Assembly: GCA_965221125.1 (NCBI GenBank)
Contig: CBDCRW010000005.1
Span: forward strand, 32,001 to 96,000
Source: Alphaproteobacteria bacterium
GTDB lineage: Bacteria; Pseudomonadota; Alphaproteobacteria; UBA828
Length of the DNA: 64,000 bases
Reading direction: 5' to 3'
The position numbers and the translations under genes are program-made. The stretch's first letter is position 1, and each line of letters begins with the position of its first letter. Of this stretch, positions 23,317-50,568 are shown piece after piece. Under the pieces are notes generated by a model that saw nothing but the letters and a program-made list of their open reading frames with translations, made no database searches and had not been told where the DNA came from.

Positions 23317-23460
23317 AGCATTGGAGTATCGAGACATGGCGGCACGCTCTATCCGCAAGCCAGCCGCGCTCAAGGAAGCGATGACCAAGCATTGGAGTAT
23401 CGAGACATGGCGGCACGCTCTATCCGCAAGCCAGCCGCGCTCAAGGAAGCGATGACCAAG
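23317..23460 (+). repeat. Perfect 71-bp tandem duplication
   Basis: AGCATTGGAGTATCGAGACATGG...GCGATGACCA at 23317-23387 and 23388-23458. Confidence 0.95.
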
Positions 23461-23609
23461 ATGCCGTAATGGGGCTCGGCGCCAATCGGCACCATCGGAG
23501 CCTGTCCCGATGACGACGAATCGGGTGTCGTTGCCCTTGCACGCTCAGCGTGCTCACGGGGTCTTGCCGGAAGGCGCGCCCCAATCCTTCGAGAGGAAAG
23601 GGCAACGAC

Positions 23610-24653
23610 ATGGCTGTCTATATCGGGCTGGATGTATCGCTGGCAAGCACGACAATCTGCGTGATCGGCGACAAGGGCAAGATCGTGACCGAGGCTCAGG
23701 TCGCCAGCACGCCTGACGCGTTGGTTGCGTTCATGGGCAAGCTGGAGCACGAGATCGCCGTGATCGGTCTTGAGGCCGGTCCCCTGTCCCACTGGTTGCA
23801 CAAGGGGCTGACCGACGCCGGCTTCGAGGCCGTCCTTATGGAGACCCGGCGGGTGAAGGCGGCGCTGAAGGCGATGCCGATCAAGACGGATCGCCGGGAT
23901 GCCGAGGGCATCGCACGGCTCTTGCAGATGGGCTGGTTCAGGCCGGTGCACTGCAAGTCGGTATCGTCGCAGGAGATGCGCGCACTGCTGACCTCGCGCA
24001 GGTCCGTGAAGGGCGCGCTCACCGATATGGAACTCTCGCTGCGCGGCGTGTTGCGCAACTTTTGCCTGAAGCTGGGCCAGGTCTCGAAGGGCCGCTGGGA
24101 GGCCCGCGTCCGGGAGTTGATCGCAGGCAACGCGATGCTGGAGGCCGCCGCCGAACCGATCCTGCGCGCGCGGGTGGCTCTGCGCCGCGAGCTGGCCGGC
24201 CTGGAGAAGCTGGTCCGCGATCTGGCCAGGGAGGATCCGGTATGCCGGCTGCTGATGACCATGCCCGGCGTAGGCGCGGTCGTGGCCCTGACCTTCAAAT
24301 CGGCGATTGACGATCCCGGGCGGTTCCGGAGATCGAAGGATGTCGGCCCCTGGGTGGGACTGACGCCGGGCCGGGACCAATCCGGCGAGCGAGATATTGT
24401 CGGCGGCATCACGAAGTGCGGCGACGCAGGTCTGCGTACCGCGCTCTATCAGGCCGCCACGGTGATGCTGAACGGCACCGCCGGGCCGAACTGGCTGAAG
24501 GCCTGGGCGCTTCGTCTGGCGAAGCTCCGTGGCAAGAAGCGTGCGACCGTCGCCCTGGCCCGGCGCATCGGCGTGGTACTTCACCGGATGTGGCGGGACG
24601 GCACCGAGTTCCGCTTCACGCGCGAGGAGGCGATGGCGCTCCAGACGGCATAG
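23610..24653 (+). CDS. IS110-family DEDD transposase/recombinase
   Basis: YIGLDVS, GLEAG, KTDRRDA, PGVG, GLTP..DQSGE, VALARR. Confidence 0.95.
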   Translation: MAVYIGLDVSLASTTICVIGDKGKIVTEAQVASTPDALVAFMGKLEHEIAVIGLEAGPLSHWLHKGLTDAGFEAVLMETRRVKAALKAMPIKTDRRDAEGIARLLQMGWFRPVHCKSVSSQEMRALLTSRRSVKGALTDMELSLRGVLRNFCLKLGQVSKGRWEARVRELIAGNAMLEAAAEPILRARVALRRELAGLEKLVRDLAREDPVCRLLMTMPGVGAVVALTFKSAIDDPGRFRRSKDVGPWVGLTPGRDQSGERDIVGGITKCGDAGLRTALYQAATVMLNGTAGPNWLKAWALRLAKLRGKKRATVALARRIGVVLHRMWRDGTEFRFTREEAMALQTA

Positions 24654-24719
24654 GCGCGGCTGCATCCCACCGGCAATCGGAAGCGAGAGGAGGAAAGAGC
24701 CGCGCCTGAAGGTGGCGAT

Positions 24720-25060
24720 CCACCGGTGTCCCCTCGCCGGGACGCGGTTCCCGTTGATGCACGCGCTGCGTCTTGTCGGCCGAACCGTTTCATCGCGTTC
24801 GAGCACGCGACCAAGATCGGCACTCGGGAATCGTTTGGACCAGGCATGACGTTGGCAGCCGCTGCGCTGACCACGGACGGAAGCGAGAGCCTGGCGACGG
24901 ACACATCCGGGAATCCCGCTTCCTTCTTTGCCGCGCAGACGAGTCAGTTAGCCGCTCCCGCCATGGCAATCCGCTATGTTGACCGCGCCTGTGATTCGAT
25001 TTGCAACAGGCTACGGTGCTTCATGTGCGAGCCACCGTGCCAGGCCGGAAGATCGTGAAG
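24720..25060 (+). ncRNA. Predicted bridge/seek RNA of IS110 copy 1 (boundaries approximate)
   Basis: Target-matching segments at 24766-24775 and 24809-24816 lie inside a stem-bounded internal loop in the right non-coding end. Confidence 0.7.
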
Positions 25061-25068
25061 ATCGGTGT

Positions 25069-25097
25069 TTGACATCAACCGCCCCATTACGGAAGAC
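25069..25097 (+). promoter_or_regulatory. Outward -35 (TTGACA) at the IS right end; forms a junction promoter on circularisation
   Basis: TTGACA 25069-25074, 17-bp spacer, GAAGAC (becomes GAAGAT in the circle). Confidence 0.55.
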
Positions 25098-25257
25098 GCA
25101 GTTGGTGGCTTCCCTTTCTAAGGGGAAGTTAGGTAGAAATGTAAAGCTCGCAGGGGTAACACCTTGCGGGCTTTCATTTTTTGTTGAATTTCATGATTGA
25201 CACGTTTGGAGTCGCAATTCTAGGTAAGCCGGAACAAGGCAAGAGCGTAAACTTTCG

Positions 25258-48019: not shown

Positions 48020-48795
48020 GCGAATCTTCTGTATATGGTGCTGATCCAGCTTCGCGATCTTGAACGGTGCAGGACCAAGTGAGCGGGGGCAAGACCTACC
48101 CAGCATCGCACCGAAGGGGGTGAGCCAAGACCGTGACGCAGCGGCGCGCGCCTGAGAGCGGCAGGGGAGAGAGGCATGACATCGACGCCGCGTGGGTCGA
48201 GATCAAGTCGGTCTCGGGCGCCTTGGAGCCGAGGAGTTCATCGCGTCGGGTCGCATAGCGATGGATTCCGTCGTCGCCGTCACCGGCAAGACGGAAGGCA
48301 ACGGCGGGACCATCACTTCACCCGGATCCTGTCGCACAGCGCCTTCCGCGCCGCCCTCTTCGAGCACAGAACGCGCAGCAAAGCCGACGTCGCCTGGATC
48401 CTCATGGTCTGGACCGGGCGGCTGCGACGGCGTGCTCACTTCGCACGCAACCGTCTTCGCCAGCAACAACAGAGACCGGGCCGGCGGACGCAGTGCGTCT
48501 CGCCAAGGGACCGCGATGAGTTCACCCATCCTGCCCGAGACATCGGTCGGCCCGCGATGGTGGAGAACATCGCGGACGGCATCCGCGCGGCGATGGCCGA
48601 CGCGGGGACCGGCGATCCGGCGGACGTCCACTACGTCCAGACCAAGATGCCGTAATGGGGCTCGGCGCCAATCGGCACCATCGGAGCCTGTCCCGATGAC
48701 GACGAATCGGGTGTCGTTGCCCTTGCACGCTCAGCGTGCTCACGGGGTCTTGCCGGAAGGCGCGCCCCAATCCTTCGAGAGGAAAGGGCAACGAC

Positions 48796-49839
48796 ATGGC
48801 TGTCTATATCGGGCTGGATGTATCGCTGGCAAGCACGACAATCTGCGTGATCGGCGACAAGGGCAAGATCGTGACCGAGGCTCAGGTCGCCAGCACGCCT
48901 GACGCGTTGGTTGCGTTCATGGGCAAGCTGGAGCACGAGATCGCCGTGATCGGTCTTGAGGCCGGTCCCCTGTCCCACTGGTTGCACAAGGGGCTGACCG
49001 ACGCCGGCTTCGAGGCCGTCCTTATGGAGACCCGGCGGGTGAAGGCGGCGCTGAAGGCGATGCCGATCAAGACGGATCGCCGGGATGCCGAGGGCATCGC
49101 ACGGCTCTTGCAGATGGGCTGGTTCAGGCCGGTGCACTGCAAGTCGGTATCGTCGCAGGAGATGCGCGCACTGCTGACCTCGCGCAGGTCCGTGAAGGGC
49201 GCGCTCACCGATATGGAACTCTCGCTGCGCGGCGTGTTGCGCAACTTTGGCCTGAAGCTGGGCCAGGTCTCGAAGGGCCGCTGGGAGGCCCGCGTCCGGG
49301 AGTTGATCGCAGGCAACGCGATGCTGGAGGCCGCCGCCGAACCGATCCTGCGCGCGCGGGTGGCTCTGCGCCGCGAGCTGGCCGGCCTGGAGAAGCTGGT
49401 CCGCGATCTGGCCAGGGAGGATCCGGTATGCCGGCTGCTGATGACCATGCCCGGCGTAGGCGCGGTCGTGGCCCTGACCTTCAAATCGGCGATTGACGAT
49501 CCCGGGCGGTTCCGGAGATCGAAGGATGTCGGCCCCTGGGTGGGACTGACGCCGGGCCGGGACCAATCCGGCGAGCGAGATATTGTCGGCGGCATCACGA
49601 AGTGCGGCGACGCAGGTCTGCGTACCGCGCTCTATCAGGCCGCCACGGTGATGCTGAACGGCACCGCCGGGCCGAACTGGCTGAAGGCCTGGGCGCTTCG
49701 TCTGGCGAAGCTCCGTGGCAAGAAGCGTGCGACCGTCGCCCTGGCCCGGCGCATCGGCGTGGTACTTCACCGGATGTGGCGGGACGGCACCGAGTTCCGC
49801 TTCACGCGCGAGGAGGCGATGGCGCTCCAGACGGCATAG
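48796..49839 (+). CDS. IS110-family transposase/recombinase
   Basis: Same as copy 1 except NFCLK to NFGLK. Confidence 0.95.
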   Translation: MAVYIGLDVSLASTTICVIGDKGKIVTEAQVASTPDALVAFMGKLEHEIAVIGLEAGPLSHWLHKGLTDAGFEAVLMETRRVKAALKAMPIKTDRRDAEGIARLLQMGWFRPVHCKSVSSQEMRALLTSRRSVKGALTDMELSLRGVLRNFGLKLGQVSKGRWEARVRELIAGNAMLEAAAEPILRARVALRRELAGLEKLVRDLAREDPVCRLLMTMPGVGAVVALTFKSAIDDPGRFRRSKDVGPWVGLTPGRDQSGERDIVGGITKCGDAGLRTALYQAATVMLNGTAGPNWLKAWALRLAKLRGKKRATVALARRIGVVLHRMWRDGTEFRFTREEAMALQTA

Positions 49840-49905
49840 GCGCGGCTGCATCCCACCGGCAATCGGAAGCGAGAGGAGGAAAGAGCCGCGCCTGAAGGTG
49901 GCGAT

Positions 49906-50246
49906 CCACCGGTGTCCCCTCGCCGGGACGCGGTTCCCGTTGATGCACGCGCTGCGTCTTGTCGGCCGAACCGTTTCATCGCGTTCGAGCACGCGACCAA
50001 GATCGGCACTCGGGAATCGTTTGGACCAGGCATGACGTTGGCAGCCGCTGCGCTGACCACGGACGGAAGCGAGAGCCTGGCGACGGACACATCCGGGAAT
50101 CCCGCTTCCTTCTTTGCCGCGCAGACGAGTCAGTTAGCCGCTCCCGCCATGGCAATCCGCTATGTTGACCGCGCCTGTGATTCGATTTGCAACAGGCTAC
50201 GGTGCTTCATGTGCGAGCCACCGTGCCAGGCCGGAAGATCGTGAAG
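49906..50246 (+). ncRNA. Predicted bridge/seek RNA of IS110 copy 2 (boundaries approximate)
   Basis: Guide-like segments at 49952-49961 and 49995-50002. Confidence 0.7.
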
Positions 50247-50568
50247 ATCGGTGTTTGACATCAACCGCCCCATTACGGAAGACGCCGCTGCTCACCATCG
50301 ACATGGTGCGGGACGCGCACGCGCGCTGAGACCTTGGCCGAGGTGGTCCGTGAATTGATGGGGGTTGGCGCACCAATGGCACCATCGGGCTCGGCATCGC
50401 GGTCGTGCTTGGCGAAGTCGCCATGCCCTGGGCCGACGAAATCTGCCACAGCGTCGACCTCTGCTCATCGATCGCCTCGTGCTCGTCGGGCGTGGAACTC
50501 GACCGCGGGAAGATCGCCCTCTTCGGCAATGCGCCGGGGGTCGGCGGGCGCTTCCGCATCGTCCCAGA

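Follow-up and report, generated by a model that had tools for sequence, protein, structure and literature searches.

The DNA analysed here, called the window throughout, is a stretch of 64,000 nucleotides (nt) from an alphaproteobacterial genome (GenBank assembly GCA_965221125.1, contig CBDCRW010000005.1, positions 32,001 to 96,000), and coordinates below are positions within it unless a contig of the host genome is named. It holds two copies of a 1635-bp mobile element of the IS1111 type, a member of the IS110 family, which differ from one another at a single base (T/G at 24063) and both begin with ATGCCGTAATGGGG and end with CCCCATTACGGAAG. Each carries a transposase/recombinase gene with 149 nt of non-coding DNA upstream (23461-23609 in copy 1) and 442 nt downstream (24654-25095). 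An earlier note on this DNA, made by a model from the letters alone, had proposed that the downstream region contains the guide RNA of the recombinase. The analysis reported here leads to a broader proposal, namely that a two-loop bridge/seekRNA is very probably encoded on the + strand at about 24737-24894, 3' of the DEDD recombinase gene, with one loop directed at the target and the other at the ends of the element itself. In the host genome (seven contigs, 4.58 Mb) there are six full copies and one 256-bp left-end fragment; five of the six are 99.8-100% identical and the remaining one 98.4%, and the downstream non-coding region is the same in all six. The boundary of the element is ambiguous over the shared AG/AAG, such that 23459-25093 would be an equally valid placement of copy 1, the core AG being common to element and flank.

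The transposase has the two domains that define membership of the IS110 family, an N-terminal DEDD/RuvC-like domain (PF01548, DEDD_Tnp_IS110; residues 5-151, E 1.9e-16) and a C-terminal Transposase_20 domain (PF02371; residues 212-287, E 6.9e-22). It scores 249.1 bits against the NCBIfam model NF033542, 'IS110 family RNA-guided transposase', for which the cut-off is 140, and its C-terminal domain matches the recombinases IS621 and ISCro4, whose structures have been solved (E 3.5e-13 and 6.2e-13). Elements of the IS1111 type have been described as encoding a transposase of 330-350 aa with a GL-P----S/TG motif and as having a long non-coding region 3' of the gene (Siddiquee et al., PMC11187229), together with subterminal inverted repeats of approximately 7-17 bp (Durrant et al., PMC11208160). 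The window element, with a protein of 347 aa, GLTPGRDQSG in its translation, 12-bp subterminal repeats and a 442-nt downstream non-coding end, is assigned to the IS1111 group on these features, all of those tested being present. Among the matches listed, IS4321/IS5075 is the sole named relative (26.6% identity over 82% of the protein), and plasmid-borne relatives with 67-75% identity are annotated merely as 'IS110 family transposase'. The element or its clade may already be catalogued in ISfinder or in the supplements of Durrant et al. or Siddiquee et al.

Table 1. Features of the element, its predicted RNA and its surroundings in the window.
Feature	Position	Strand	Remarks
IS copy 1, ATGCCG...CGGAAG	23461..25095	+	1635 bp
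IS copy 2	48647..50281	+	one base off copy 1, at the equivalent of 24063
Transposase/recombinase gene, copy 1	23610..24653	+	347 aa; DEDD_Tnp_IS110 and Transposase_20; motif GLTPGRDQSG
Transposase gene, copy 2	48796..49839	+	offset 25186 from copy 1
Left subterminal inverted repeat, CCGTAATGGGGC	23464..23475	+	12 bp, 3 nt inside left end
Right subterminal inverted repeat, GCCCCATTACGG	25081..25092	+	12 bp, 3 nt inside right end
Left half of target, copy 1: GACCA and core AG	23454..23460	+	
Right half of target, copy 1: ACGCAG(T)	25096..25102	+	
Target sequence of the element, written out			GACCAAGACGCAG
Target-binding module (predicted)	24737..24838	+	102 nt
Outer helix, target module	24737-41 / 24834-38	+	
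Stem of the earlier note, CGGTTCCCG / CGGGAATCG	24745-24753 / 24825-24833	+	9 bp including one G:U
Loop-closing helix	24756-60 / 24820-23	+	4 bp; tighter closure than the stem above
5' arm of target loop, CGCTGCGT-CT-TG	24764..24775	+	antisense to right flank r7-r1, core and 2 nt of left flank
Inner hairpin	24779-85 / 24797-24804	+	contains CGAAC (24781-85) / GTTCG (24797-24801); 3 compensatory pairs
3' arm of target loop, GACCA-AG-AT	24809..24817	+	same sense as left flank and core
5' arm of target loop, copy 2	49950..49961	+	
3' arm of target loop, copy 2	49995..50003	+	
Donor-binding module (predicted)	24840..24894	+	
Outer helix, donor module	24840-44 / 24890-94	+	weak, 85.7% paired
5' arm of donor loop, GGCAT	24843..24847	+	reverse complement of left end ATGCC
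Second (donor) hairpin	24851-59 / 24866-74	+	well supported; one pair A-U in 20 sequences, G-C in 13
3' arm of donor loop, ACGGAAG	24877..24883	+	same as last 7 nt of right end
TTGACA, candidate -35	25069..25074	+	CTTGAC at least 90% conserved in 44 relatives; 17 nt before terminal GAAG
Tandem duplication of left flank	23317..23460	+	71 bp, 2.0 copies, 100% match; ends at last base before copy 1

The six genomic copies occupy one type of site. When they are taken out, the flanks rejoin as gatGACCAAG-ACGCAGtt (copy 1), cagACCAAG-ACGCCGct (copy 2), gatGACCAAG-ACGCAGct (copy 3), gagACCAAG-ACGCGCta (copy 4), gtgTACCAAG-ATGCGGcg (copy 5) and aggACCAAG-GCGCAGcc (copy 6), where the hyphen marks the place of the element, and all six conform to the consensus (G/T)ACCA-AG-RYGC. 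The genome contains eight exact GACCAAGACGC sites, four of them occupied and four empty.

Both halves of this site can be found in the downstream non-coding end, as CTGCGTCTTG at 24766-24775 (antisense) and GACCAAGA at 24809-24816 (sense), which sit on opposite strands of one internal loop, termed here the target loop. The programmable part of its 5' arm covers 24765-24771 and is followed by the complement of the core, CT (24772-73), whilst that of the 3' arm is GACCA (24809-13), followed by the core AG and then AT. Among the relatives introduced below, AGA in the 3' arm is invariant and the T that follows is at least 90% conserved; AT (24816-17) is identical to the first two bases of every left end (44 elements). 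With each of the six genomic sites the 12-nt 5' arm (24764-24775) can form 8-11 Watson-Crick and 0-2 G:U pairs, and the 3' arm 7-9 Watson-Crick pairs out of 11. Two sites deviate in the first four bases of the right flank (ATGC and GCGC for ACGC), and both deviations are G:U-compatible with the guide. To gauge chance, the 441-nt non-coding end was shuffled 2000 times by mononucleotide and compared with the 22-nt rebuilt site. An antisense match of 10 nt or more coincided with a sense match of 8 nt or more in one shuffle; taken singly, they arose in 14 and 146 shuffles respectively.

Far stronger evidence than this test on a single element is provided by covariation of guides and flanks across relatives. 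Relatives were sought in one genome per species; of the 479 confirmed, the best 80, with proteins 69-95% identical, were kept. The first analysis used 66 of these loci and the window (67 in all), and loci L031-L044 joined later, for the analyses of partial repeats and corrected flanks. The ends of the element were placed by the inverted repeat, by AG before AT(G/A)C at the left and by (G/A)AAG at the right, which succeeded at 44 of the 67 loci; the other 23, which ran into a contig end or had no inverted repeat with AGAT/AAG, were dropped. All 44 placed elements follow a left flank ending in AG and themselves end in AAG, from which the core shared by element and flank is read as AG. The guide-flank test was applied to the 41 elements for which 10 nt or more of flanking DNA were available on both sides, representing 31 guide classes and 40 distinct element-site pairs. 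The 5' arm was scored by the longest exact match of the 5' strand of the loop to the 10 nt that follow the element on the right, taken as their reverse complement, and the 3' arm by the longest match of the 3' strand to the left flank, excluding the shared AG; guide classes were then reassigned to sites in 20,000 permutations.

Guides match the flanks of their own elements far more often than those of others. Matches of the 5' arm of at least 6 nt occur with the own right flank in 19/40 pairs vs 17/1528 other pairs, and those of at least 7 nt in 13/40 vs 2/1528, whilst the 3' arm matches its own left flank over at least 5 nt in 16/40 vs 80/1528. The mean longest match is 5.40 for the 5' arm, compared with 3.31 +/- 0.16 (maximum 4.04) after permutation, and 3.94 for the 3' arm, compared with 2.82 +/- 0.14 (maximum 3.53); for neither arm did any permutation reach the observed value. 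A corrected set, in which the right flank is read after the last right end of the element and to which the five other copies of the window genome are added, comprises distinct flanks, 53 at the right and 58 at the left, six loci contributing a left flank only. At L027-L030, L009, L018, L045 and L051 the uncorrected right flank had been internal sequence of the element, and it was replaced in this set; the flanks beyond the last right end fit the guides, reading GGAGCATT at L018, CGGGCGAC at L045, TCGGCCAT at L051 and GCATCCT-like in the Kordiimonas copies. With corrected flanks the mean for the 5' arm rises to 5.78, against 3.31 +/- 0.16 in permutations (0/20,000 reach it). With the register fixed, the fraction of sites at which the 3' arm agrees with its own left flank is 0.95, 0.80, 0.66, 0.68 and 0.78 for positions -1 to -5, counted from the core, and at background level at -6 (0.24 vs 0.26); pairing of the 5' arm exceeds background at r1-r7 and not at r8. 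These limits indicate that the element reads 5 + 2 + ~7 bp, which for the window element amounts to ~14 bp, GACCA-AG-ACGCAG(T).

The loop that carries the guides is set in a conserved structure. Downstream regions of the 44 elements align well over ~24725-24905 and poorly elsewhere, and between the conserved helices of this alignment hypervariability is confined to both strands of the first internal loop. Thirty-four distinct sequences of the well-aligned stretch were used to derive a consensus fold, to which one helix was added by hand, and the structure was scored pair by pair. Standard pairs make up 96.3% of 1178 cells, vs 20-39.1% after displacement of the 3' partners by 1-3 columns; 12/35 pairs have changed on both sides, and none of 500 shuffles reached the observed value on any of five structure measures. 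Many pairs switch between G-C and G:U, and one is G:U in 33/34 sequences; helices so rich in G:U fit an RNA read from the + strand. The predicted modules, of 102 nt (24737-24838) for the target loop and 158 nt (24737-24894) with the donor loop included, fit the size ranges reported for short (70-100 nt) and long (145-170 nt) seekRNAs (Siddiquee et al., PMC11187229).

On most of these points the earlier note was borne out. Its strings and coordinates for the common site restored by removal of the two window copies all proved correct on re-reading, as did those of the two half-matches on opposite sides of the internal loop, and the stem and inner CGAAC/GTTCG hairpin to which it ascribed the closure of the loop are both kept in the 34 homologous RNA regions. 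Its assignment of an IS110/IS1111 RNA guide agrees with the family domains, the IS1111 features and the guide-flank covariation, and its view that the natural target can be read from the element, as GACCA-AG-ACGCAG(T), agrees with the 5 + 2 + ~7 bp derived from the relatives. Covariation of guides with targets across homologues, which it had named as a check, is strongly positive (0/20,000 permutations for either arm), and other copies in unrelated sequences, which it held would refute the idea, are not what the genome contains, as 6/6 copies share the site. The description of the element as recently active is plausible in view of the near-identity of the copies and their identical non-coding ends; 'reprogrammable' finds its support only in natural variation, in the shape of 31 guide classes on one conserved scaffold. 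The note recognised the target loop and missed both the second loop (24840-24894) and the four other genomic copies.

This second loop matches and covaries with the ends of the element, on which ground the RNA is interpreted as a two-loop bridge/seekRNA with a target and a donor loop. Where the left end reads ATACC, the donor 5' arm has G(G)TAT (10/10 loci, three elements), and where it reads ATGCC or ATGCT, C stands at the matching position of the arm in 33/34 loci, the exception being a U:G wobble. Eight elements have a variant right end, and the 3' arm carries the matching change in five of them, is wobble-compatible in two and mismatched in one. Right ends in ...ACAGAAG are accompanied by an ACAGAAG arm in two elements, whilst two others keep G (a G:T wobble); ...ACGAAAG, ...ATGGAAG and ...ACCGAAG are each matched by the donor arm in one element, and one further element with an ...ATGGAAG right end keeps C in its arm, the mismatch mentioned above.

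The anatomy of the element, the common target of its six copies, the helices with their compensatory changes and the way in which both loops track flanks or ends, all observed in these sequences, are compatible with the following mechanism. The 5' arm of the target loop (24765-24773) would pair with the top strand of the right flank and the AG core, and the 3' arm (24809-24815) with the bottom strand of the left flank and the core, the two jointly specifying the ~14-bp target. In the donor loop, GGCAT (24843-47) would pair with the left end, ATGCC, and ACGGAAG (24877-83) with the bottom strand of the right end, and the same RNA would thereby hold the joined ends of the excised circle. Strand exchange by the recombinase at the AG core would then produce insertion in one orientation, without target duplication. 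By analogy with other members of the family, the RNA would be made, bound by the recombinase and needed for movement, and the same analogy underlies the proposed chemistry, the circular intermediate and a promoter formed at the circle junction.

Sequences of the element are present in public metatranscriptome libraries. Contigs from four runs in three studies were compared with 23431-25130, and over the RNA region those of X1 (24704-24969), X2 (24714-24882) and X4 (24731-24864) show 0 differing letters. Two X1 contigs have other left flanks, their agreement with the window starting at 23453 or 23454, which indicates other insertion sites sharing (T)GACCAAG. One X2 contig, a single record with a depth of 4.5, joins 24652 to 24714 and lacks 24653-24713, the 61 nt that separate the stop codon from the RNA region and are bordered by a 4-nt repeat; it probably represents a variant copy in another strain. 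Gaps in the coverage of the element in some runs carry no meaning. As regards transcription of the element itself, promoters formed at the circle junction have been described for the IS110/IS1111 family (PMC11187229). In the window element a perfect and conserved TTGACA lies near the right end, and in a circle the terminal GAAG would be joined to the left end to give GAAGAT as a putative -10. A junction promoter of this kind may thus exist here on the strength of the conserved TTGACA, although its -10 would be weak.

Several results weigh against the interpretation of this region as a two-loop guide RNA. Folding of the 166-nt region by free energy gives a minimum free energy (MFE) of -65.6 kcal/mol with z = +0.26, whilst the comparative structure reaches -37.0, and the fold of the whole non-coding end is no more stable than those of shuffles (z = -0.24). 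MFE structures differ from the comparative one, as is to be expected given the partial complementarity of the two loop arms, and the proposed fold is accordingly one derived by sequence comparison, not by thermodynamics. No Rfam 15 family matched the window at the gathering score or 23400-25150 at E up to 1, although this release may hold no bridge RNA model. Own right flank and guide share fewer than 5 contiguous nt in 18 of the 53 cases, including three of the six sites in the window genome. The records from RNA libraries are assembled contigs without strand or ends, for which DNA carry-over is possible; a scan of 23400-25200 found no sigma-70-like promoter in the integrated element, and the putative -10 at the junction agrees at 3/6 positions only. 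Within the donor module, the outer helix is weak, its middle pair being unpaired in 18/34 sequences, whilst the 5' arm shows covariation at a single position and no pairing with the core.

The last of these points bear on the alternative that survives best, although we regard it as unlikely: that only the first loop guides, as a 'short seekRNA', whilst the protein binds the ends through the subterminal repeats and the second hairpin serves processing, stability or termination. The likeness of the second region to the ends would then be incidental or act at the level of DNA. Apart from the weak outer helix and the single covarying position of the donor 5' arm, the idea draws on the report that for ISEc11 an 82-nt short seekRNA, holding the target loop only, was sufficient for movement (42%), and on the statement by the same authors that how the ends are bound is unknown (Siddiquee et al., PMC11187229). 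It fits less well with the donor 3' arm, which tracks changes of the right end at three different positions in 5/8 variant elements, or with the 5' arm, which tracks ATGCC to ATACC in three elements. Donor and target loops have, moreover, been reported in IS1111 elements (Durrant et al., PMC11208160).

A second alternative is that the matches act as DNA, the copy of the target in the non-coding end being a captured or decoy site or a site of protein binding. Covariation of sequence and flank does not by itself identify the acting molecule, and the transcript evidence is at the level of contigs only, yet this explanation is very improbable. The half-matches lie on opposite strands with a hairpin between them, inside helices kept by compensatory changes, and the many G:U pairs of these helices would be A-C mismatches on the other strand. 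The deviations at real sites are likewise of the G:U type, and co-purification and reprogramming of the RNA have been shown for relatives in the same family (PMC11187229). That the likeness of loop and target is due to chance, the shared site reflecting recognition of DNA by protein, has a negligible probability: single short matches are not rare in shuffled sequence, as the 8-nt sense match shows, but the joint occurrence of both in 1/2000 shuffles and the failure of all 20,000 permutations to reach the agreement found for the 31 guide classes refute it as far as computation goes.

The two-loop bridge/seekRNA proposed for the window element belongs to a mechanism that is already established. 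That IS1111 and IS110 elements choose their targets by means of an RNA guide was reported in 2024 (Siddiquee et al., PMC11187229; Durrant et al., PMC11208160), and the novelty rating given by the earlier note was in this respect too high. For four IS1111 members the seekRNA has been shown to co-purify with the transposase, to be necessary and to be reprogrammable (Siddiquee et al., PMC11187229), and bridge RNAs have been predicted in the right ends of 93% of IS1111 elements (Durrant et al., PMC11208160). As described for the IS1111 elements ISEc11, ISPa11, ISKpn4 and ISPst6 (PMC11187229), the window element combines a DEDD transposase of 330-350 aa, the GL-P----S/TG motif and subterminal repeats with a downstream non-coding region; it has two short opposite-strand matches to the target, which overlap where the element inserts and stand in the order reported for IS1111 seekRNAs (from 5' to 3', top strand first and bottom strand second), and its relatives show the same natural retargeting on a conserved scaffold. 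It differs from these four in belonging to another clade, in its target, GACCA-AG-ACGCAG inside ordinary genes, and in being known here from sequence alone. In addition, covariation assigns its second loop to the ends of the element, whereas no such assignment is made in the part of Siddiquee et al. (PMC11187229) drawn on here.

With IS621 and ISCro4 (PMC11208160, PMC11208158) the window element shares the use of one RNA with a target and a donor loop that would read both strands around a 2-nt core, and the C-terminal domains of the recombinases are homologous (E 3.5e-13 for IS621), whereas the N-terminal domain is barely alignable to theirs by phmmer. Unlike IS621, it has its RNA in the right and not the left end, with the order of the arms reversed and with long inverted repeats, and its core on the gene strand is AG, compared with CT in IS621. 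In IS621, 'handshake guides' form pairs with the other DNA once strands have been exchanged (Hiraizumi et al., PMC11208158). The AT of the target loop (24816-17), which matches the donor, is similar to these, and the AG-AT of the window element may, by analogy, play a comparable part.

Some relatives carry traces of a further kind of recombination. At 18 of 58 loci (the 44 placed elements and 14 further copies from one Kordiimonas genome), namely L009, L018, L027-L035, L039, L040, L042-L045 and L051, the right end ...GGAAG is followed by internal sequence of the element itself, which runs to a second and sometimes a third right end. Sixteen distinct restart points were found in five elements, and all 16 follow AG, a dinucleotide with a frequency of 0.056 in the Kordiimonas element. 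In the window, the left flank of copy 1 is itself duplicated in tandem, in 71-bp units (Table 1); each unit begins with AG, and the joint of the units therefore reads GACCA-AG-CATTGG. Such partial repeats, together with the 71-bp duplication, are the pattern expected if recombinases of the IS1111 clade can join one RNA-matched half-site and the bare AG core to any other AG, giving rise to tandem partial repeats, a proposal to which we attach an even chance. The duplication may have been left by recombination of the left half-site with an AG further upstream, or it may stem from replication slippage or an assembly error. Tandem non-coding repeats and half-match boundaries have been reported at IS110 loci (Xie et al., bioRxiv 10.64898/2026.08.31.748434; Hu et al., bioRxiv 10.64898/2026.08.14.744561), and, as at those loci, the relatives of the window element have tandem partial 3' copies in which one boundary is a true end and the other shows no recognisable end. 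Unlike those in the two accounts, the elements here are of the IS1111 type, and their unmatched side always follows AG (16/16), a detail that the portions of these accounts drawn on here do not describe. One of the Kordiimonas copies (L029) also contains ~326 bp of inserted sequence, which brings it to a length of 1950, compared with 1624 in its sister copies.

Other observations concern the individual copies and their surroundings. Copies 1 and 3 sit in similar gene starts, ...KEAMTK-TQLVAS... (window 23337-23460 continued from 25096 onward). The DNA after copy 3 (G000:C5:719942-720226, L081) encodes a protein of the Bac_DNA_binding (HU/IHF) family (PF00216, E 3.3e-12), whilst after copy 1 the reading frame soon diverges and is followed by a terminator-like hairpin (25143-25174), so that the first site looks like a truncated duplicate of the start of an HU/IHF gene. 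Copy 3 (G000:C5:718286-719941), which is the copy with 98.4% identity, is rearranged over the part corresponding to 23729-23766, which holds 21 additional bases, and its transposase gene contains one in-frame TGA; it is probably inactive, although its RNA region is intact. The host genome also holds two copies of a different IS110-family element (315 bits; C3:392157-393134 and C4:166507-167484), a partial relative (C2:60018-60803) lying ~5 kb from copy 4, and a short fragment (C7:303676-303921).

Beside many alphaproteobacterial relatives, some lie outside this class (L004, L018 and L019, also L011 and L022). Relatives with 84-93% protein identity are found on megabase chromosomes labelled Binatia and Thermodesulfobacteriota, and others, on short contigs binned as Chloroflexota and Gemmatimonadetes, are 100% identical over residues 86-347, a case in which a binning error is possible. 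This distribution suggests that the element has moved across phyla recently.

The window element is thus a clean and fully readable further example of a bridge/seekRNA recombinase and not a new mechanism, and since the mechanism is established, its value lies in the particular case and in the accompanying data set. Sequence alone suffices to define its target of 5 + 2 + ~7 bp, its donor loop, its scaffold and six real insertion sites. The ~31 naturally retargeted guides on one scaffold constitute a specificity map, in which programmable, G:U-tolerant and fixed (AGAT) positions can be told apart, and genomes alone are enough to annotate elements of this kind and to predict where they insert. 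The partial repeats joined at AG provide a lead on natural off-target or half-site recombination. If the proposal made for them is true, they would be genomic footprints of half-match recombination in the IS1111 group, with the core dinucleotide alone as the minimal unmatched partner, and would bear on the off-target behaviour of engineered bridge recombinases.

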